NCBI GenBank assembly: GCA_039024555.1
Contig: JBCCQQ010000006.1
Span: 64,001-128,000, forward strand
Direction of reading: 5' to 3'
Origin: Cyanobacteria bacterium P01_D01_bin.156
GTDB taxonomy: Bacteria; Cyanobacteriota; Cyanobacteriia; Phormidesmidales; Phormidesmidaceae
DNA length: 64,000 nucleotides
How positions within the stretch are numbered: position 1 is the stretch's first letter; every line of letters starts with the position of its first letter. Position numbers and translations under genes: made by a program. Below the pieces are notes generated by a model. That model saw only the letters and a program-made list of their open reading frames with translations. It did no database searches and was not told where the DNA came from. Positions 6,226 to 18,240 of this stretch are shown here, piece by piece.

Positions 6226-8205
6226 ATGAACACTTTTCTAGCGCTTCTAGTCAATCAGATTGTTGGCACTTTGTTTCAAGATGCACCTGAAATTGAAGAC
6301 CTTGGTGATATCTTCATTGGTGGCAATGGAGATGATAATCTCATAGGAGGCGATCAGGATGATATCTTCCTTAGTCAAGATGGTGATGACACCATTCTAG
6401 GCGGTGCCGGAACCGATATTGTTTTTGCTGACAAAGGTAAGGATACCGTTGTTGGACAAACCGGGAATGACGTCGCTTTTTTGGGAGCAGGCAATGACCG
6501 CTTTATTTGGAATAACGGTGATGGTAGCGACTTCATCAATGGCGGCTCAGGCTACGATACAACCCAAGTAAACGGTGCTGACGGTCCTGGCGATCAGTTT
6601 GACCTCAGGGCAGAGAACGGACGGGCGCTCTTTAATCGCCTCAATTTGGGCCTGTTTACTCTGACTAACGAGAGTATCGAGAAATTTGAGATTAATGGCC
6701 AGGGAGGCGATGACTCGTTAACGGTTGGAGATTTAACCGATAGCGATGTCAAAAAAGTGGTCTTTTCTGGGGGAGATGGCAATGACACTCTAGATGCCCG
6801 TGAAAGCTCCACAAAAATTAAGGCTAAAGGGGGTAAAGGAGATGACCTACTACTGGGTGGCTCCGCTGAAGATATCTTTCTTGCCGGTTCTGGTAACGAT
6901 ATTGTCGTCGGTCAGCGAGGAAATGATAGGGCTAACCTAGGCAGAGGCAATGACCGTTTTATTTGGAACAACGGTGACGGCAGTGACGTTATCAATGGTG
7001 CAGCAGGCTACGATACAACTCAGGTAAATGGTGCCGATGCCGCTGGAGATGAGTTTGAGCTTAGCCAAGAAAATGGTCGAGCAATTTTCAATCGTCTGAA
7101 CCTGGGGCTGTTTACGCTGACTAACAAAAGTATTGAACAGTTTGAGATTAACGGCCAGGGTGGCGATGATTCTTTAGCAGTAGGCGACCTGACCGACAGT
7201 GGCGTGCAAAAAGTCATCTTCTCAGGTGGCGAAGGTAATGATACGTTAGATGCCCGAGAAAGCACCACGACGATTGAAGTCTTTGGTGGTGATGGCGATG
7301 ACCTACTACTGGGGGGCTCAGCTGAAGATACCTTTTTTGCTGGAGCTGGTAATGATATTGTTGTGGGCCAGCGCGGTAACGATACCGCAGACTTAGGGGA
7401 TGGTGACGACCGCTTTATCTGGAATAACGGTGACGGCAGCGACTTTATCAATGGTGCAGATGGGTTTGATGTGACCCAGGTGAATGGTGCCGATGGTCCT
7501 GGCGATGAGTTTGACCTAAGCCAGGTGGATGGTCAGGCTATTTTTAATCGTCTCAATCTAGGATTGTTTACCCTTACTAACGAGGGTATTGAACAGTTTG
7601 AGATCAATGGCCAGGGTGGGAATGATTCGCTTACCATCAACGATCTGACCGGTAGTGACGTCCAGTCCGTACTCTTCTCCGGCGGCGATGGCAATGATTT
7701 CTTAAATGCTAGCGGTACATTTACTCCAGTTACTGCTGATGGTGGCGATGGCAATGATATTCTCATCGGTGGTGCCGGTGACGATATTCTGATTGGTGGT
7801 AATGGGTCCGACTTACTCATTGGGGGTGCCGGTAACAACATTCTGATCGGTGGCAATGGGGCTGATTTCTTTGGCTTTGATACCGGTGCTGTCTTTGATG
7901 CCGATGATATTGGCACGAATCAGATCCAAAACTATGAAGCTATCGACACCATTGTGCTGGATCTTACTGTCTTTGCTCAGTTAACCAGTGCCGTGGGGGG
8001 TGCCCTATCTGCCAGTGAGTTTGCAGTGGTCAATAGCGCCGAAGAAGCGGCTCTCAGTGATGCTCTAATTATCTACGGTGCCGATACCGGAAACCTCTAC
8101 TACAACGCCAATGGTGGTGAAGAGGGCTTTGGTAACGGTGCTCACTTTGCCACCATTGAAGGTGCACCCACCTTGGATGCCAATAGCTTTGTTATTCAGG
8201 CGTAG
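6226..8205 (+). CDS. RTX/hemolysin-type calcium-binding repeat protein
   Basis: Many GGxGxDxLx nonapeptides. Three internal 152-aa (456-bp) modules, marked by G(N/D)DRFIWNNGDGSD at 6490, 6946 and 7402. Confidence 0.92.
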   Translation: MNTFLALLVNQIVGTLFQDAPEIEDLGDIFIGGNGDDNLIGGDQDDIFLSQDGDDTILGGAGTDIVFADKGKDTVVGQTGNDVAFLGAGNDRFIWNNGDGSDFINGGSGYDTTQVNGADGPGDQFDLRAENGRALFNRLNLGLFTLTNESIEKFEINGQGGDDSLTVGDLTDSDVKKVVFSGGDGNDTLDARESSTKIKAKGGKGDDLLLGGSAEDIFLAGSGNDIVVGQRGNDRANLGRGNDRFIWNNGDGSDVINGAAGYDTTQVNGADAAGDEFELSQENGRAIFNRLNLGLFTLTNKSIEQFEINGQGGDDSLAVGDLTDSGVQKVIFSGGEGNDTLDARESTTTIEVFGGDGDDLLLGGSAEDTFFAGAGNDIVVGQRGNDTADLGDGDDRFIWNNGDGSDFINGADGFDVTQVNGADGPGDEFDLSQVDGQAIFNRLNLGLFTLTNEGIEQFEINGQGGNDSLTINDLTGSDVQSVLFSGGDGNDFLNASGTFTPVTADGGDGNDILIGGAGDDILIGGNGSDLLIGGAGNNILIGGNGADFFGFDTGAVFDADDIGTNQIQNYEAIDTIVLDLTVFAQLTSAVGGALSASEFAVVNSAEEAALSDALIIYGADTGNLYYNANGGEEGFGNGAHFATIEGAPTLDANSFVIQA

Positions 8206-9549: not shown

Positions 9550-11826
9550 ATGACCTCATCTGGTAAGCCTCAACCCAAGCAACCAGCCAGTGAGCAATTA
9601 GCAGACATGGTTCTTAAGGTGGTCAGAACTGGCGGGATTGCTGGTGGTGGCATTGGTGCGTTTTGGCAGCTGTTTCTAAATAGCGATATCCCAAAGGCAA
9701 TTGCATCATTGGTAATCGGTGCTGGCCTTTCCTATGGTGCTAAGTTGTTGATGCCCGTCCATAAAGGAAATGAGAAACGGGCGGAACAGGCTGGAAAAGC
9801 TATCAATGAAGGCATTGATCAAGTCTTTGACCAGATTACTAACCAGGTGATTGCGGCAGCAACTGGGTTTGAGAATAAGTACTTGCTGTGTCAGGCGGCA
9901 GAATGTCAGGCGTTTCGTTCTGAGGGCATGGCCCAGCATGATGGCATTTTTATTCCGCTATTGACGGAAGTATTTGTGCCGTTGGAGCTAGACTCTAGCG
10001 CTATGCAAGCAGGCTTTCACTCGCTAATGCTGGATAGAAATCAAACAAGCCAACGGGAGCTAACTATTTGGACCTTTTTAGCCCAGGCACAAAAGACACC
10101 CACATTTCGTCAGCTAGCCATTCTAGCTTGGGGTGGCTACGGTAAGACCACGCTGTTGCGGCACATTGCTTTTCGCTACGGCACTAAACAGATTCCTAAA
10201 GGAGCACCAAAGTTCATCCCTGTCCTACTGATCCTCAGACAGTATAAGGATTTACTCGCTCAGGATAATCCTCCTGACTTACCACAGTTCATCACTGACC
10301 ATCACCTACCAGATTTGCCCGGTGCCGATAATCTAAAACCACCCAAGGATTGGGCATTGAACCTTCTCAAAAGTGGTCGAGCATTGGTAATGTTGGACGG
10401 CTTTGATGAAGTTGGTACAGATCAGCGTTCAAACGTGGCTAAATGGTTAACGGCTCAAATGCGCCGCTATGGTCAGGCAGTCTTTTTGCTCACATCTCGT
10501 CCCAAAGCTTATAGAGAACAAAAAGCAGGCGCAAGGTTGCAGTTAAGTACATCCCTGTGGGTAAGAGACTTTAATGAGTTACAGAGAAAACAGTTTGTTA
10601 CCCGTTGGTATGAGTGCCAAGAACGTTATGCCAATGCTGGGCGAGAAACCCCAGATGTCAAAAAAACAGCAGATCGTGCATCCCAAAATTTACTTGCACA
10701 AATTGAATCTCAGCAGGCTCTGAAGGATTTGGCAAAAAATCCTTTGTTGCTCAATATGATTGTCACCTTCCATCGCCGGGTGCCAGGTGCGGAACTACCT
10801 AAGCGCAAGGTAGAACTGTATCGAGAAATTTGTCAGCTGCAGTTACTAGACCGCCCTAGAGCTCGTGGTGTAGGGCCTTTGATGACCCAGTACAATGCCC
10901 AGGGGATTTTGCAACAGATTGCCTTTGCCATGATGCAGCGCCAGTGGAAAAGGATTGACCAAAAGGTATTACTGCAAGGGTTAAGTCAAATTATTAAACA
11001 ACAAGACGATCAGTTTTCGGCTAAGGATTTTTTGAAGGAAGTGGTGCAAATTAGTGAGCTGCTAGTAAAGCAAGAAGACCAATATGAATTTGCTCACCTA
11101 AGTTTTCAAGAGTATTTAGCGGCGGCCCATATTGCCCAGACTAGAAAGGAACAGGTACTGTATTCGCAGTTTGACAATGATTGGTGGAAGCCAACAATTT
11201 TACTCTATGCGGGGATAGTAAGTCCAACACAGTTGATGCGAGAGGCCGTTAATCAGGGAGCAACGGATCTGGCTTATCAGTGTTTACAGGAGACGACGAA
11301 GCAGGTGGATGCCTCCCTGGCAGCTGAGCTGAAAACTGTTAAGGCAGTTGTAGTAGATGCTCGCTATGCGAACTTAGAAACGTATTTGAAAAATGGCGAG
11401 TGGGAAAAGGCAGATAATGAAACCTATCGACTGATGATCACTACCGTTGGCAAAGAAGAGAACCAGTTCTTTGAAAACGAAGAACTACTCGAATTTCCCT
11501 GTGAGGAGCTAAAGACTATTGATCAGTTGTGGGTCACCCACAGTAAGGGCAAGTATGGTTTTAGCATACAAAAGAAAATTTATTTAAGCGTTGGTGGTGT
11601 AGCCGATGGCACATATAATGATGAGGCCCATAAACAATTTTGCGATTTAGTGGCTTGGCGAAAGGACGGTTCTTACAGGTTCGAAGATATATTGATGGAT
11701 GGAAGGGGGCCTCACGGACATCTCCCTCGCCCGGTCGTTCCCAGGTTTTGGTTTATAGATCTTATGGGGGTGCTTGGGGGGGGGGTTTGGTTTTTTTTGT
11801 CTCTTCTCTCGCATCGAGACTTGTAG
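9550..11826 (+). CDS. NACHT NTPase with N-terminal hydrophobic helices and C-terminal GUN4 domain
   Basis: Walker A AWGGYGKTT, Walker B LVMLDGFDEV, NPLLL, FAHLSFQEYLAA. GUN4 motifs YANLETYLKNGEWEKADNET, FPCEELKTIDQLW, YGFSIQKKI, GHLP. Confidence 0.9.
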   Translation: MTSSGKPQPKQPASEQLADMVLKVVRTGGIAGGGIGAFWQLFLNSDIPKAIASLVIGAGLSYGAKLLMPVHKGNEKRAEQAGKAINEGIDQVFDQITNQVIAAATGFENKYLLCQAAECQAFRSEGMAQHDGIFIPLLTEVFVPLELDSSAMQAGFHSLMLDRNQTSQRELTIWTFLAQAQKTPTFRQLAILAWGGYGKTTLLRHIAFRYGTKQIPKGAPKFIPVLLILRQYKDLLAQDNPPDLPQFITDHHLPDLPGADNLKPPKDWALNLLKSGRALVMLDGFDEVGTDQRSNVAKWLTAQMRRYGQAVFLLTSRPKAYREQKAGARLQLSTSLWVRDFNELQRKQFVTRWYECQERYANAGRETPDVKKTADRASQNLLAQIESQQALKDLAKNPLLLNMIVTFHRRVPGAELPKRKVELYREICQLQLLDRPRARGVGPLMTQYNAQGILQQIAFAMMQRQWKRIDQKVLLQGLSQIIKQQDDQFSAKDFLKEVVQISELLVKQEDQYEFAHLSFQEYLAAAHIAQTRKEQVLYSQFDNDWWKPTILLYAGIVSPTQLMREAVNQGATDLAYQCLQETTKQVDASLAAELKTVKAVVVDARYANLETYLKNGEWEKADNETYRLMITTVGKEENQFFENEELLEFPCEELKTIDQLWVTHSKGKYGFSIQKKIYLSVGGVADGTYNDEAHKQFCDLVAWRKDGSYRFEDILMDGRGPHGHLPRPVVPRFWFIDLMGVLGGGVWFFLSLLSHRDL

Positions 11827-11903
11827 ACTGTAACAGATAAGCGCTACAGCCCGATCTAAACTTTCTTAAACACAGTCTCTACATACCAATCCTCGTTGTT
11901 TCG

Positions 11904-12680
11904 TCAATTCGTTACCTGGTACCCTGCTAGCTCTCTTGCCAGGTCTGGGTTATAGGCATTGGCCATCAAAAAACGTTCCGTGATATTCTGAATTTCCTCC
12001 ATAGGAGCATCCCATTCTTGCCATAGAGATTTTTGACCAGGGCTAACTTTTTTCTTGGGCTTACCCTTCAATTTCATCCTTGCTAGCAATGTATTTCCCC
12101 AGTAATTTCGCTTTTCTGGCTTTGGCCTTGGTCGATACCGCTCACAAAATTTACGATATATCGTTGCACAGATTTCCAAGGTCGCTCCCAATGCCATAAA
12201 TGCCAGGTGCCATTCGGTAATACCATCCTGGGTCAACCGTTCATAGGTTCCATAATTGCTGAAATCATAGAAAAAGCCCTGCTGCATATTGGCAGCCTTT
12301 GGGTTCCCATGGATATAGCGAATCGTATTCAATGCTCTTCGAGTATCGCTCATCTCAAAGCCGCTGCTGTGATACCGCTTTTCCCAAAAGTGCCCTGTCC
12401 GGTTCAACATTCGGTTAAAACACATGGCACTATACCAGTTCAGCCAGTGCATAATTTTCGGTAACTCTTCTGGCTGCTGCGGCTTTAACAAATAATGGAC
12501 ATGATTGCTCATAATGCACAGAGCATAGAGCCTGAAACCATATTTTTCTCGGCACTTTTGAAGTGCATATAACAATACAGAACGACATTCATACCGCGTC
12601 AATCGAAACTCTCGATTATTGCATCGTATTGTTACGTGACAACAAAGATTAGGACGTAAGTCCCTCAGTTTACGGGCCAT
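11904..12680 (-). mobile_element. REP-associated tyrosine transposase (RAYT / Y1 HUH endonuclease)
   Basis: HVTIRCNN, YALCIMSNHVHYLL (HUH motif), GHFWEKRYHS, IRYIHGNP (catalytic Tyr), FSNY. No tnpB partner and no obvious IS ends. Confidence 0.88.
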
Positions 12681-12777: not shown

Positions 12778-15700
12778 TCAAAGAAATGTTGCCTGTGTGC
12801 ATTTAAGACTCTCATTATTTTGAGGGAGTATGATTTCAAAATCTGTTGTTCCACTTTCTGCTGAATTCACAGTTAATGTGCCTGCATGTTTTCGAATAAT
12901 GGAATAGCTTACAAATAACCCAAGCCCTTTCCCCTGACCCACTGGTTTTGTTGTAAAGAAAGGCTCAAAGATTTGCTTCTGAAGTTGTTCTGGAATAACA
13001 CTGTTAGTATTGGAAATAATAATCTTCACTTTCCCAGACAAAGCCTGCTCAGTGCGAATCCGAATCTCAGGGGTATCGTCAACACAGGTATTTTCCCGAA
13101 TGGCATCGATTGCATTATTGATGATGTTCAAAAACACTTGGTTGAGCTGATTGGGGTAACACACAACTTTAGGTAATTGAGTATACTGCCGCGTAATTCT
13201 AATTTCCGGTTGCTCGCCTAATGCTTGTAGGCGGTTATTCAAAACTAAGAGGGTACTTTCAATTCCACTATGCAAATTAACAGCTTTAACAGCAGCCTGA
13301 TCTAATCGTGAGAAGTTTCGTAGACTTTGAACAATTTCGTTGATTCTTTCACTACCCACTTCAATAGAGTCCAAAATACTATTGATATCCAAAAATATAT
13401 CATCAGGTTCAATCGCGTTAATTTTTGACTGAAGAGATGGACTAGGTTGAGAATACTCATCCTGATAACTATGGAACAAATCCTGTAAATCTTTAATATA
13501 GTCTTGTAGATGAGGAACATTGCCCATAATAAATCCCACTGGATTATTGATTTCATGGGAAATTCCTGCAACTAGCTGTCCTAGTGATGACATCTTTTCA
13601 GCATGAATAAGATGGGCTTGAGTTTGCTGTAATGTTTGCAATGTTTGTTGCAGATCATTGGCTTTGCGATGAAGATCTTGGGTCTTTTGTTCAACTTCTT
13701 TTTCCAGTTTTTGAGAGTAGTTTTCTGCCTGCTGATATAAGCGGGCATTTTCAATAGAAATCGCTGCCTGACTTGCTAAAAATTGCAAGACTTCTACCCG
13801 TTCATCTGTGAATGCCCCCACCATCAAATTGTTTTCTAAATAGAGCACTCCAATCGTCTTATTCTGGAGTTTTACAGGTATACACAAAACCGACTTAGGT
13901 TTCTGGGTAAGAATATAAGGATCGGCGACAAACTGCTCATCGGCACTCAAGAATTCGAACACAGCTTTCTCTTGAGTCCGGATGACTGAGTAAACAAGAC
14001 GTTTGGGAAGACCTAAATAATGCTCTAAAGAAATATCTATTCGGTTTACCTGATTGGGGGTTGCTTCAACCACTACAGTCCATTGATTATTTTGATAAAG
14101 GAGCAAGTGACCAACTTGTGCTCCTGCATTTGCGATAACTAGATTCATCAAGGTTGTTAGCAATTTCCCAAATTCAATTTCCTGCGAAATTGCTTGCGCC
14201 GCATTTAAGATCGTTGGAATATCCAGTAAACTCTCAATTCCTTGCTTAATACTCAAAGTAGAGTAACCCTCACCTTGGTCTTTGCCCAGCAATTCTACTG
14301 AATAAAAATTTGTCTTCAAGAGATTGGGATAACGCTGTTCCAAGTGATTGAGTTTTGCTTTAGCCCCCCATCGTTTATAGCCATCATAAGCATCTTGTAG
14401 GTAGCCAACGGCCGCTTTTTTCTTGTCCCAATTCAAATAAAATCTGGCAGCTAGTTCATTCGCAAGAGCTTCTTCATAAAGACAATGCTGGGCTCTCGAC
14501 TGTGCGATCGCTTGCTCGTAAGAATCAATAGCGTCAGCATACTGACCAGACAACTTTAATTTCTCTGCTTGAACTAGCAAACATTTATGAGATATATTCT
14601 CAGGGCAGTCTTGCTCCCACTCCTTCAATTTTTTCTCTAGGAGCAAAACTTCTTGCCAATGAGATTTTCGTACCTCTTTATTGTTAGAGACTTCGAAAAT
14701 TGACAAATGCATTAATGCCGCATAGAAAACACTAGAAGGAACCTTTGCATGGCTAGGAATTGTATCCTCAATAATGCTTAACTTAGAAATTAAATCTGCA
14801 TATATGTCCTGCTGGTCAAAGAGGTAGGCATGGCGAATTTTAACAGAATAGAACCAAGCTAGATGATAAGGACTATTGTCATATTTGTGGCAGAAGCTGG
14901 CTTCGTTAAAACTTGTATCATCAAAGCTCTCGACTGTTGTTGTCAGTCCCAGTAAATGGCGAATGGGTTGAATAACACCCACAATCAAAGCATCGCGATT
15001 TTCTAGGCTTTTGATGCGATATAGAAAATCTGAATGGGCTTGAGCTGTTTGATATAACTCCTCCAAGTTTTGACCGTATGTTAATCGGTCCGAACTACTT
15101 AGCATCATTGTAAAGCTCACTGTTAGCCAGTTTCCAGCTTGCATCCCTTGCCTGAGGGCCTCTTCATAGTACACATCCGCTTCTTTAAGAGGGCGGCTCC
15201 AGCTATGAACATCGGCTGCGAATAAGAAATTGGTCATGCCACAAATGTCGGCATTATCAAACTGATCACAAAGGGCAACAGCCGTAGCACCAAAGTGATA
15301 CGCCATAGCAGCATTTCCAAGAAGTGTATTGGCAATTAACCCAAAGCCAACATAGCCAAAGGGAGACATATCACTGTTGCCATGCTGCAGTGATATGGTC
15401 GTCATTTTTGCTAGGGCAAGATACGCTAACTTTGATTGACCATCTAACCATGCTGCATAGAAAAGAACCTGCAAAATGCGTAGCATTTCTGCCACATTCT
15501 CATTCTGCATGATAGGCAAATCAATAATCGATTGGATTGAATTGTGGTTTAGAAAATGTACAACAGCTTCAATCTCACACTTTAACGCTGCATCTAAGTC
15601 AATATCATTTTTGGGTACCGGCCATCCCAATAGTTCAAGACTTTGACGCTGAATAGCAATGGCTTCCTTATTTCTTCCCTGAAGCTGATATTGAGTCATC

Positions 15701-18240
15701 TGCACTCGGTAAATCATGGCTTTGTCGAGTGCCGTTTGCGAATGATCAATAGCTAAAGCATATAGGGTTTCTGCTTGCTCAAAATTGCCACAAAGATAGG
15801 TAGCTTCAGCACCGGCATAATGCAATTGGAACATCAGAGAGTAATCAGTTTGCCAAACCTTTTCAGACAAACAATCAATACCCATAGAGTAATATTGCGC
15901 CGCTACTTCATAGGCGGATGAGGCCTTAGCCTTTTGGCCAGCTTGTAAATTGAGCTTCGCTACCGCTAGCGTCTCTTGAGGAGAAGAAATGAAATTTCGA
16001 CCTAGATTAAACTGATTGACAATAGAAAATAATTGTTCTTCTTTCTGCCTTTGAGAAAACCCTTGTAACAGCAATCGACCAATTTGAAGATGAGTACTTT
16101 GCTTTTGATTATCTGGAATCAATGTGTAGGCAGCTTGTTGAATCCGGTCATGTAAAAATCGGTATCGAATAGCACCATATTCGCCATCGCTTGTGTCATT
16201 TCCCTCCAGATAAAATGCATGTGACGAAGAGTCAGAAAGAATAAACCCCTCTTGAAGACTAATCCATAGTTTCTGGTTGACCGATTCCAGAGCCTCTTCA
16301 CAAATAATCGCTAATGTCTCTAAATCAAAATTGTTACCGATGCAGGCAGATAACTTGAGAACAGTCTGTGTGTCTTGCGGTAGTTTTTGTAAACGACTTA
16401 CCATAAACTGAACGACATTATCCGTCAGAGATAACTGTTGAACAGCACTAAGATCGCACTGCCAACACCTCATATCGCTATTAAAATAAATATTGTTGTC
16501 TCTATGTAAGCCTTTGATAAATTGAATAGTAAAGAAAGGATTTCCCTTTGTCTTACGATGAATTAGCTCAGATAAAGACACTGAGACTGCCGATGGACAC
16601 ATCATCGTATCAGTAATCAAATCAGTAATGTCTCCCTTCGTCAAAAGAGATAACATCATCGTATGAATGACTTTGCCATCTTCTCTCAGGGTATCTAATA
16701 GCCTAATCAAAGGATGGGCAGGATACACCTCGTTATCCCGATAGGCTCCTAATAATAAGAGATACCCCGCTTCTGATTCATCCATAAGAAGCTGAATCAA
16801 ACTCAATGATGCAGAATCTGCCCATTGTAGGTCATCTAAAAAGATAACGAGAGGATGCTCCTTCTTTGTGAAAAGCCTGACAAACTTGCCAAATAATAAA
16901 TTGAATCGATTCTGTTCTGCACCACCGGACAGTTTTATCGTAGGGGGCTGAGGGCCGACGATACATTCTAATTCGGGAATAACATCCGTAATAACTTGCC
17001 CACTATCTCCTAATGCAGATAATATTTTTGTTCTCCAGTGGGTTAGTTCTGCCTCCGATTCCCCAATTAATTGTTCGATCAATCCACGAAATGCCTGTAC
17101 AAATGCAGAGAAAGGTCTATCTTTGTGGAATTGATCAAATTTCCCCTGAATAAAATATCCTTTTTGTCGAGTAATCGGTTTATGAACTTCATTAATAACC
17201 GTTGTTTTACCAATGCCAGAACATCCTGACACCAACATAATTTCTGAGTTACCTTGGGTAACTCGATCAAACGTATTCAATAGACATTGCACTTCTAATT
17301 CTCGGCCATAAAGCTTCTCAGAAATCAAAAAACGATTGCTGATATCTTCTTGTCCAATCTCAAATGGTTCAATCTTTTGAGTTGTCTGAACCTGATGCAA
17401 GCAATTCTCTAAATCATATTTAAGCCCTAAACTACTCTGGTAACGATCTTCCGCATTCTTCGCCATCAGCTTATGAACAATTTGCGAAACGATCGGCGGG
17501 ATGGATTCATTGATATGGTGCAGCGGTTTGGGGATTTGGGCCAAATGACAATGCACTAGTTCTAAGGGAACCATCGATAAGAAGGGAAGTCTGCCCGTAG
17601 CTAATTCATAGAGGGTAACTCCAAGACTATAAAAATCAGTACGATAGTCGATTCCCCTGTTCATTCGTCCAGTTTGTTCTGGAGCTAAATAGGATAGAGT
17701 CCCTTCTAAACTGTTGGGCTTATTTAAGGCTTGCAATTCATAAGATAATAATGAGGCCATACCAAAATCAATGAGCCTGACTTGCTTAGATTGAGGATGG
17801 ATAATGATATTCCCAGGATTAATATTTTTATGAATGATTCGGCATTGATATAAATTATGTAAAATTTCTGAAAGCTGGATAGCAATCTTCAAAGTATCGA
17901 CAAGGGATAAAGAGAATTGCTTCACATAGTCTCTTAGAGCAATACTATTGTAATCTTCCATCACCAAGGCATAACTATTTTCACGTAGCTCAAGGCTAGC
18001 GGCATGAACAATACCAGGAATGAGAAGATTCTTGGTGATCTTATATTCGTTTCGTAATAGCTGCTGTTGTCTAAGGGTTAGATATTCGTCACGCAATAAC
18101 TTAATGACAACAGTTCGGCCCTGACTCTCTTGAATAGCCTGATAAACAATTATTTTTGGGCTACTGTAAAGAGGCTTAGTAGGTGTATATCCAGATAGTT
18201 GAGGCAAGCTATTGTGTTGATAACTGGGAAGCAAGGCCAT
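12778..18240 (-). CDS. Ser/Thr kinase-AAA ATPase-GAF-histidine kinase (HstK-type)
   Basis: Kinase domain (VVIK, DFG, YLAPEQTGRMNR), Walker A GCSGIGKT, LDDLQWAD, GAF (LYLENN), HisKA (HEINNP), HATPase (GKGLGL). Confidence 0.93.
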   Translation of the reverse strand: MALLPSYQHNSLPQLSGYTPTKPLYSSPKIIVYQAIQESQGRTVVIKLLRDEYLTLRQQQLLRNEYKITKNLLIPGIVHAASLELRENSYALVMEDYNSIALRDYVKQFSLSLVDTLKIAIQLSEILHNLYQCRIIHKNINPGNIIIHPQSKQVRLIDFGMASLLSYELQALNKPNSLEGTLSYLAPEQTGRMNRGIDYRTDFYSLGVTLYELATGRLPFLSMVPLELVHCHLAQIPKPLHHINESIPPIVSQIVHKLMAKNAEDRYQSSLGLKYDLENCLHQVQTTQKIEPFEIGQEDISNRFLISEKLYGRELEVQCLLNTFDRVTQGNSEIMLVSGCSGIGKTTVINEVHKPITRQKGYFIQGKFDQFHKDRPFSAFVQAFRGLIEQLIGESEAELTHWRTKILSALGDSGQVITDVIPELECIVGPQPPTIKLSGGAEQNRFNLLFGKFVRLFTKKEHPLVIFLDDLQWADSASLSLIQLLMDESEAGYLLLLGAYRDNEVYPAHPLIRLLDTLREDGKVIHTMMLSLLTKGDITDLITDTMMCPSAVSVSLSELIHRKTKGNPFFTIQFIKGLHRDNNIYFNSDMRCWQCDLSAVQQLSLTDNVVQFMVSRLQKLPQDTQTVLKLSACIGNNFDLETLAIICEEALESVNQKLWISLQEGFILSDSSSHAFYLEGNDTSDGEYGAIRYRFLHDRIQQAAYTLIPDNQKQSTHLQIGRLLLQGFSQRQKEEQLFSIVNQFNLGRNFISSPQETLAVAKLNLQAGQKAKASSAYEVAAQYYSMGIDCLSEKVWQTDYSLMFQLHYAGAEATYLCGNFEQAETLYALAIDHSQTALDKAMIYRVQMTQYQLQGRNKEAIAIQRQSLELLGWPVPKNDIDLDAALKCEIEAVVHFLNHNSIQSIIDLPIMQNENVAEMLRILQVLFYAAWLDGQSKLAYLALAKMTTISLQHGNSDMSPFGYVGFGLIANTLLGNAAMAYHFGATAVALCDQFDNADICGMTNFLFAADVHSWSRPLKEADVYYEEALRQGMQAGNWLTVSFTMMLSSSDRLTYGQNLEELYQTAQAHSDFLYRIKSLENRDALIVGVIQPIRHLLGLTTTVESFDDTSFNEASFCHKYDNSPYHLAWFYSVKIRHAYLFDQQDIYADLISKLSIIEDTIPSHAKVPSSVFYAALMHLSIFEVSNNKEVRKSHWQEVLLLEKKLKEWEQDCPENISHKCLLVQAEKLKLSGQYADAIDSYEQAIAQSRAQHCLYEEALANELAARFYLNWDKKKAAVGYLQDAYDGYKRWGAKAKLNHLEQRYPNLLKTNFYSVELLGKDQGEGYSTLSIKQGIESLLDIPTILNAAQAISQEIEFGKLLTTLMNLVIANAGAQVGHLLLYQNNQWTVVVEATPNQVNRIDISLEHYLGLPKRLVYSVIRTQEKAVFEFLSADEQFVADPYILTQKPKSVLCIPVKLQNKTIGVLYLENNLMVGAFTDERVEVLQFLASQAAISIENARLYQQAENYSQKLEKEVEQKTQDLHRKANDLQQTLQTLQQTQAHLIHAEKMSSLGQLVAGISHEINNPVGFIMGNVPHLQDYIKDLQDLFHSYQDEYSQPSPSLQSKINAIEPDDIFLDINSILDSIEVGSERINEIVQSLRNFSRLDQAAVKAVNLHSGIESTLLVLNNRLQALGEQPEIRITRQYTQLPKVVCYPNQLNQVFLNIINNAIDAIRENTCVDDTPEIRIRTEQALSGKVKIIISNTNSVIPEQLQKQIFEPFFTTKPVGQGKGLGLFVSYSIIRKHAGTLTVNSAESGTTDFEIILPQNNESLKCTQATFL

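Follow-up and report, generated by a model that had tools for sequence, protein, structure and literature searches.

A RAYT-linked hypervariable loop in GUN4-domain sensor genes of cyanobacteria

In marine picocyanobacteria, RAYTs (TnpA-REP-like Y1 HUH nucleases) lie tail-to-tail with procA lanthipeptide genes across conserved intergenic DNA; the facing genes vary only within a 3′ coding segment, with insertions and deletions, and RAYT 3′ remnants occur beside targets (Laurenceau et al., bioRxiv 10.1101/2020.03.09.984088). That preprint proposes a diversifying recombination but states that strong evidence on causality is lacking in either direction. Here we describe a module of the same layout, a RAYT opposite a gene with a variable 3′ end and a conserved spacer between them, found in a 64,000-nucleotide stretch of DNA (the window; contig JBCCQQ010000006.1, positions 64,001 to 128,000, assembly GCA_039024555.1) from Cyanobacteria bacterium P01_D01_bin.156, where a NACHT-GUN4 gene and a RAYT gene converge. 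Comparison with homologs reveals a real, widespread RAYT-linked hypervariable sensor loop. An earlier note, made from the sequence of the window, had proposed that the RAYT diversifies the end of the GUN4 gene, and as a whole its interpretation is largely supported.

The window RAYT is 43–47% identical to the procA-facing proteins, which the preprint places in group 1/subclass 2.1; it may belong there too. A TACCTGG box found in the GUN4 module is also present at the 3′ end of procA-facing RAYTs, at a fixed 45–49 nt from their hairpin. The GUN4 module differs in having a sensor-domain rather than a lanthipeptide target, a G/T bias, a tail that terminates in three frames and no conserved intergenic hairpin; and whereas causality was left open for procA, loss of the RAYT or of an anchor sequence here accompanies freezing of the variable segment. 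The main text of the preprint does not mention GUN4; its supplements may bear on non-marine relatives.

Several other systems share parts of this arrangement. Cyanobacterial diversity-generating retroelements (DGRs), in the passages of PMC7517822 that treat them, have remote targets at the 3′ ends of multidomain signalling genes, sometimes with IS200/IS605 genes nearby. Like the module they combine a hypervariable C-terminal ligand-binding segment with kinase, caspase or TIR N-termini and dispersed paralogs; unlike them, the module has no template repeat or adenine-specific change, varies in length, carries an HUH nuclease rather than a local reverse transcriptase (RT) and uses a GUN4 fold. 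REPtrons, typified by E. coli TnpA-REP (PDB 4ER8; described in part of PMC8266576), have the same nuclease fold, an HUH motif with one Tyr and CT at the inferred cut, but the module lacks their REP/REPIN flanks and conserved hairpin and instead has a low-copy, fixed-length element abutting a coding segment. With IS200/IS605, of which sections of PMC5027513 describe strand-specific cleavage at element ends, it shares sporadic occurrence on plasmids and, as predicted here, Y1 HUH chemistry and such cleavage; it differs in having no tnpB, left end or subterminal hairpin and in always lying beside one kind of target gene. The NACHT-GUN4 architecture itself is known among bacterial NACHT proteins, for which a portion of Kibby et al. 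(bioRxiv 10.1101/2022.07.19.500537) predicts chlorophyll derivatives as the ligands of GUN4.

Full-text searches, with subscription journals outside their coverage, returned no description of a RAYT–GUN4 link, nor did passages from the cyanobacterial DGR, conflict-system and RAYT-classification literature contain one. We regard the module as new: no characterised system does this, and the procA proposal, itself unproven, is the closest precedent.

The RAYT–GUN4 module across cyanobacteria

The target gene is a 758-aa open reading frame (ORF) on the forward strand (positions 9550–11826) with a NACHT NTPase domain at 10135–10611 (aa 196–354; Pfam PF05729, E 5.9e-15) and a GUN4-like domain reaching to a GHLP motif at 11356–11730 (aa 603–727; PF05419, E 4.9e-30). 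Opposite it, on the reverse strand at 11904–12680, the 258-aa RAYT contains a Y1_Tnp domain (aa 11–124; PF01797, E 6.7e-18) with an HUH motif and one catalytic Tyr, features that predict single-stranded DNA (ssDNA) cleavage; H60 (12501–12503), H62 (12495–12497) and Y122 (12315–12317) are invariant in 52/52 RAYTs. The RAYT structure model (predicted local distance difference test score, pLDDT, 73) has E. coli TnpA-REP, 4ER8, as its top Foldseek match (E 2.4e-6). Matches of this model to Thg1 folds (E 3.9e-4, root-mean-square deviation (rmsd) 12–22) were read as a shared palm-like fold only, and an Atlas search with the C-terminal half returned just its own family and some weak leads, among them a group in which 21% of members carry Bac_DnaA_C.

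ORF and Pfam scans confirm the tail-to-tail layout that the earlier note had seen, with stops 77 bp apart, and its description of a solitary RAYT holds: no tnpB lies beside the gene, and the repeats at the locus include no REP doublets and no high-copy GTAG-hairpin REPs or REPINs. Its statement that insertion sequence (IS) ends are not evident is half right. No shared motif is visible by eye in the 160 nt upstream of the RAYT in 80 homologs, and so nothing resembles a left end, but a conserved, one-sided element of fixed length occupies the RAYT 3′ end. The RAYT is not single-copy, as had been assumed. The source genome of the window (G000; 149 contigs, 99% complete, repeats may be missing) holds three full copies (100, 82 and 66% identity) and one fragment; opposite every full copy lies a GUN4 end carrying the same tail. 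A fourth GUN4 gene there retains the tail and a RAYT remnant; two more have no tail, one of them the stand-alone gun4.

Two GUN4 loci of G000 show further detail, with labels for the first assigned by inspection. At L003:224–2353 (contig C60), a TIR-like GUN4 gene with an anchor is followed by a RAYT 3′ remnant, inside which lie an unrelated, shorter RAYT-like gene facing the GUN4 gene and a REP-like hairpin. At L004 (C121:4508–4985), a GUN4 gene ends in IFSRIAVH and a stop, resembling a decayed tail, and its segment is no longer G/T-rich; this is probably an old, extinct copy of the module.

Across cyanobacteria, the RAYT lies opposite a GUN4 end. Among the best 80 of 408 RAYT homolog stretches from species genomes, GUN4 is on the opposite strand about 100–560 bp from the RAYT stop in 74; four of the six others have less than 150 bp of contig left, L065 has an anchor with no detectable GUN4, and L078 has neither. 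A second sample, of 80 metagenome loci, gave 54 with this arrangement, and 23 of its 26 misses have less than 500 bp of contig left. The enrichment beside GUN4 3′ ends on which the earlier proposal depended is thus present in both samples, most misses being truncated contigs, and a distribution of 74/80 facing GUN4 does not resemble IS-like insertion at unrelated sites. No third gene recurs in the 80 loci beyond shadow frames and one family, which we take to be Uma2-like, in 10 and 7 loci. The N-terminal domains of 13 scanned targets were NACHT (5), caspase (4), TIR (2), kinase (1) and unassigned (1). The module is on five plasmid records and, at E ≤ 1e-20, on no phage record.

Target and nuclease are joined by a fixed-length, nearly gap-free cis element at 11800–11923 (no strand assigned), defined by its conserved spacing. 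It opens with a 3′ anchor and tail on the forward strand (11800–11840) that reads SLLSHRDL, LFSRIETCRL or SSLASRLVDCNR in the three frames, each followed by a stop (11824–11826, 11831–11833 and 11838–11840), and closes with the TACCTGG box at 11912–11923 (no strand assigned). The frame tolerance proposed earlier is used in nature, the three frames serving 24, 43 and 28 of 95 homologs. From anchor start to box is 112–113 bp in 86/91 loci, and 61 aligned copies are nearly gap-free at 69% identity. In 38 of the 65 loci that could be parsed (of 80), the RAYT ORF does not include the box, which argues for a DNA element and not a coding constraint. No consensus fold or hairpin was found on either strand, and an Rfam search to E ≤ 1 gave nothing; columns 38 and 50 can pair in 61/61 copies, but their neighbours cannot. 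The element is present in four copies in G000. The anchor edge is sharp, its first two bases being kept in 72 and 68 of 95 loci and the next four in 91–95 of 95.

A two-part pattern, run on 401 genomes of the phylum, detects the element in 44, whereas the reversed control has no matches; GUN4 ends are present in 29 of 30 fetched matches. Genus g20 has 4–19 GUN4 matches per genome in 20/20 genomes, some in tandem within one ORF, with a diverged anchor that the pattern found in 0/9 there; the pattern therefore undercounts the element. The LLSHRDL/LLSHPDL tail frame (11800–11826) resembles the canonical GUN4 ending LLCHPAW of the G000 gun4 gene (C38), a likeness that suggests the anchor derived from the GUN4 gene's own last helix. 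In L228, L223, L048 and L138/L139 the anchor is deleted and the GUN4 frame is fused to the box or the RAYT end; such deletions are possible by-products of nicking.

Wholesale replacement of the loop after GHLP

The GHLP codons (11716–11727, forward strand) form the 5′ constant boundary of a 72-nt variable segment (11728–11799, forward strand). In GUN4 proper, LxNxLR is the bilin-binding motif and is absent from paralogs, according to part of PMC10156173; the stand-alone gun4 of G000 reads GHLP-LSNQLR, and in the window gene the variable segment stands in place of this motif. A model of the GUN4 domain (pLDDT 87, falling to 54–58 in the segment) superposes on porphyrin- or bilin-bound GUN4 structures (4XKC, 4XKB, 7E2T; Z 19.4, rmsd 1.9, 137 aligned). 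Since the segment replaces the LxNxLR loop, it should lie at the lid of the ligand pocket.

With T29 G28 C10 A5, the segment is 79% G+T (C/A-rich on the RAYT strand), and a content of at least 57 G+T is reached in 16 of 183,716 non-overlapping 72-nt windows of G000, both strands counted. The wobble base of the GHLP Pro codon already has this composition. The earlier note called it an A-poor homopolymer segment; it is A-poor (A5 of 72), but it is also G/T-rich and C-poor, and with shuffle-like run lengths "homopolymer" was an overstatement. From 164 loci we parsed 100 segments, 95 of them unique, with lengths of 20–172 nt (median 53) and a composition of G43 T32 A14 C11 that does not change with codon position. 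Only 5/95 segments contain an in-frame stop where 44 would be expected, and the other two frames have 35 and 39. Together, these observations indicate that the bias is mutational and that selection keeps the frame open, while the tail supplies a stop whichever frame is used. We rejected selection against stop codons as the source of the A-depletion, A being 14% at all codon positions and C depleted too.

Between near-identical loci, the loop after GHLP is replaced wholesale by random-looking DNA for which no donor was found. We identified 24 locus pairs with at least 97% RAYT identity, 17 of them evaluable, and in 13 the segments are no more alike than shuffles (p ≥ 0.07). L118 and L120 have flanks identical at 744/744, 60/60 and 110/110 positions around unrelated segments, and tandem copies in a single-contig complete genome (RAYT 734/738) likewise differ there. 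The earlier expectation that variation would be confined to the segment after GHLP is borne out by near-identical pairs and by protein clusters. A donor was sought in G000, where the longest matches were 12–15 nt against 12–17 for shuffles, and in the complete genome G071, which returned the self-match only.

These properties bear on two alternatives. Were the gene a remote DGR target, for which passages of PMC7517822 supply a cyanobacterial precedent, the A-poor segment could be read as a mutagenised variable repeat; but lengths run from 20 to 172 nt, C is as depleted as A, the unalignable alleles share no common non-A skeleton, no same-length template repeat differing at adenines was found in G000 or G071, no RT was found in G000, and the fold is GUN4, not C-type lectin. 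That origin is largely refuted and highly improbable. The analogy to a DGR target drawn by the earlier note survives as one of function; the wholesale replacement with length change and without adenine-specific copying does not fit it. Assembly error in low-complexity DNA could be suspected from contig breaks in the segment (sequencing run X1, at 11789), an N-gap in L061, and P0063 and P0064, which end inside a frozen segment. Depth at the break is 20 versus 13, and we do not take the break as evidence because contigs also end inside frozen segments. An artefact would not give identical frozen segments from up to 14 separate proteins, stops purged only in frame, or different segments within one single-contig genome; it is refuted at the level of the family, and we give it next to no weight.

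Short duplications leave a further trace of how segments arise. Direct copies of the anchor start occur inside 7/95 segments (1.5 expected), five of them beginning at the anchor's first base; re-copies of the 5′ flank occur in 7/95 (1.3 expected) and internal direct repeats in 14/95 (2 expected). Prefix sharing, considered for a model of rewriting from the anchor side, amounted to three short common starts and one repeated allele in 210 pairs, too few to use. In record 18 of sequencing run X3, from a relative, 23 new, G/T-rich nt separate a 30-nt piece of anchor from the full anchor that follows, an arrangement that may be a snapshot of anchor-start duplication. On the sense strand, the RAYT-linked segments of L229, L212, L217 and L053 are rich in A and C, and some of them contain reiterated 5′-flank copies; this pattern might reflect another writing mode or the opposite strand.

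Frozen loops where the RAYT or anchor is lost

Natural loss states separate variable from frozen loops. Thirty target proteins were looked up in clusters at 90% identity: 11 belong to multi-member clusters, 18 are singletons and 1 is absent; for the two largest clusters, tails were read from 15 listed of 89 and 15 listed of 162 members. Where the query locus has both RAYT and anchor, the segments differ in all five clusters, with distinct tails in 13/15, 13/14 (both among cluster members listed), 3/3, 2/2 and 3/3 parsed members and with bodies up to 464/466 identical. Across the first three of these RAYT-linked clusters, among members listed, only 4 of 170 member pairs have a segment in common.

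Absence of an intact RAYT was scored with a 52-sequence RAYT profile, which in the query genomes concerned returned nothing or distant or fragmentary matches (E 2e-15 to 6e-9). Each of the five clusters from such genomes has one frozen segment. In the first it is kept in 14/14 members (one substitution) with bodies down to 382/425; in the second, 7/7 full-length members have the same segment, alongside two compatible partials and one unrelated fragment; the remaining three are 2/2 each (bodies 398/436, 391/425 and 287/287). In one further cluster the RAYT is intact but the anchor is destroyed, and the segment is frozen there too (4/4). The loop is thus frozen where RAYT or anchor is lost, which gives natural-state support to the RAYT-linked diversification envisaged in the earlier note. 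Causation by the RAYT is supported, as far as genome comparison can carry it, by these loss-of-function states.

Two explanations assign the RAYT a smaller role. In one, it moves or exchanges ready-made alleles through cassette mobilisation, recombination at the anchor, gene conversion or horizontal transfer. Such exchange would account for freezing without the RAYT, and it is suggested by the same tail on different bodies (P0011/P0014 and P0021), by the varied N-terminal domains and by the five plasmid records. It leaves the origin of random, codon-blind G/T DNA without account, however; neither G000 nor the complete G071 yielded a silent donor, the upstream regions of 80 homologs, read by eye, showed no left end, and the alleles are almost all private (13/15 and 13/14 distinct among members listed). 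We consider it unlikely.

In the other, the locus is a RAYT-independent contingency locus at which slippage or host repair acts on the G/T tract and anchor, with the RAYT as an inserted passenger. Elements without a RAYT are indeed common (22/44 genomes), internal direct repeats are enriched (14/95 against 2), and the frozen controls all come from one genus. Run lengths near those of shuffles, with an excess longest run in only 7/95 segments, argue against simple slippage; differing alleles are unalignable and unrelated rather than length variants with different repeat-unit numbers on a common tract; RAYT-less G/T-rich segments stay frozen while the body drifts by up to 10%; and the catalytic triad is invariant. 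This explanation is quite unlikely.

Around the module, the window encodes an RTX-repeat protein (6226–8205) and a kinase-AAA-GAF-histidine kinase (12778–18240), neither of which recurs beside homologs in 80 loci. A promoter and terminator scan gave matches at chance level only.

A possible nick-and-write mechanism and its meaning

We favor a two-part, RAYT-dependent diversifier that rewrites the loop largely without a template, and on the genomic comparisons above we put the probability of this reading at about 0.7. Several observations weigh against it. A single genus (g5) supplies all six frozen clusters and no active multi-member cluster (L115 is a singleton and L080 is absent from the collection), so that lineage is confounded with RAYT status, and that status rests on the query genomes, not on the members. 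No RAYT match at E ≤ 1e-10 exists in 22 of the 44 element-bearing genomes, which still have G/T-rich segments; we infer that these elements are relics, since RAYT remnants end at different points. Five related loci account for ten of the 13 differing pairs, leaving four independent groups overall. Four of the 17 pairs are identical throughout, perhaps through repeated assembly of one and the same DNA, and a RAYT-linked protein recurs without change on 46 contigs; rewriting would then be episodic at most. Segments rarely have old 5′ parts in common, which a simple anneal-and-repair model does not explain, and the sequencing run that contains the locus and is perhaps its source, viewed as contigs only, showed no alternative allele.

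Mechanistically, the module could be a half-element that has kept only its 3′ ("right") end. The RAYT would bind the element and nick one strand at the anchor edge, leaving the 5′-phosphotyrosine and free 3′-OH that HUH enzymes produce (a section of PMC8266576); a host enzyme would trim the 3′-OH and extend it without a template, with short re-copying excursions; and repair, or strand transfer by the RAYT, would close the gap around a new loop. Because the anchor edge is sharp, the nick is predicted within about 2 nt of 11800–11802. The 5′ edge might be set by selection on GHLP or by a second cut.

In the leading version, the nick would fall on the RAYT-coding strand, where the element would be a 3′ end without a partner end, and polynucleotide phosphorylase (PNPase) would write a C/A-rich tail. 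On this strand the new DNA is C43 A32 T14 G11. PNPase trims and extends ssDNA 3′ ends without a template, preferring dCDP ~ dADP >> dTDP ~ dGDP (part of PMC3241651), and is encoded in G000. The agreement is a post hoc match, expected about 1 time in 3 by chance (top two bases, either strand). Two observations contradict this version and speak against a universal PNPase writer: the two commonest bases are not G and T in 18/95 GUN4 segments, and 12 segments of the picocyanobacterial sisters are unbiased (A27 C23 G26 T24). Given RAYT-dependent rewriting, a minus-strand nick combined with PNPase might be right somewhat less than half the time.

The second version within our preferred reading would nick the GUN4-sense strand at C|T and use a G/T-preferring writer, which could be an RT acting in trans, a Y-family polymerase or the RAYT itself; it would fit the short duplications equally well, copies of the anchor start being compatible with nick-primed read-through. 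E. coli TnpA-REP cleaves at C|T (stated in part of PMC8266576), and the anchor starts TC|TCTT, its first T and C being kept in 72 and 68 of 95 loci and the bases that follow in at least 91/95, apart from one C/T position. G000 has three Y-family polymerase genes, and RTs, counted without regard to type, are present in 5/5 complete module-bearing genomes checked. On the other side, RVT_1, Prim-Pol, LigD and PolX-thumb have no match in G000, at the completeness given above; the 80 loci have no recurrent third gene, no G/T-preferring terminal transferase was identified, and nothing conserved here corresponds to the GTAG hairpin by which C|T cleavage is guided. The form of this version with an RT-dependent writer, which we count apart from the preferred reading, is very unlikely.

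Combined into one proposal, a domesticated half-transposon would provide cyanobacteria with adaptive sensors whose diversity is of a junctional kind: the RAYT would nick its right end, PNPase would add tens of deoxynucleotides without a template to the former bilin loop of NLR-, caspase-, TIR- and kinase-GUN4 proteins, the three-frame tail would keep any length viable, and RAYT loss would lock a selected specificity; we hold this combination only tentatively. Under the same tentative proposal, the enzyme clade would further account for diversity in prochlorosin cores and in a second target family of picocyanobacteria. Sister RAYTs of L168, L170, L171, L172, L173, L178 and L179 (picocyanobacteria, family f18) lie opposite this second family as well as procA; it is absent from the main text of the Laurenceau et al. 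preprint. Its members look secreted (335 aa in L172, with no Pfam match) and end in a variable, Cys-containing tail preceded by a constant RDVRVHD-like motif.

The target product would be a NACHT, caspase, TIR or kinase sensor with a randomised lid over what was once the bilin pocket. An immune-type role may be suggested by the N-terminal domains and by the part of Kibby et al. that treats bacterial NACHT proteins; the target shares their NACHT-GUN4 architecture, but a randomised loop stands in place of the bilin-binding motif and brings it closer to the "antigen-receptor" class.

At V(D)J junctions, terminal deoxynucleotidyl transferase (TdT) adds N nucleotides, pairing a site-directed break with untemplated, base-biased insertion. 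The module works like this system, and only in that sense: DNA is inserted in a ligand-binding loop and filtered for frame. It differs in having no segment joining and no RAG or TdT homolog, longer inserts, and a three-frame tail that rescues the frame.

To our knowledge, the targeted diversifiers known in prokaryotes reshuffle or miscopy existing DNA. The module appears instead to create coding sequence that is new and untemplated, at a fixed position and by means of a single small nuclease gene plus some 125 bp of cis DNA, and its natural on and off states, with RAYT or anchor lost, are available as controls. If this is true, it would give a function to a large, unexplained group of RAYTs and an account of the many GUN4 paralogs without the bilin motif, and the question of prochlorosin diversity becomes directly testable through the sister enzyme. 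The module suggests a compact in vivo generator of random loops, and points to an undescribed way of generating sensor diversity.

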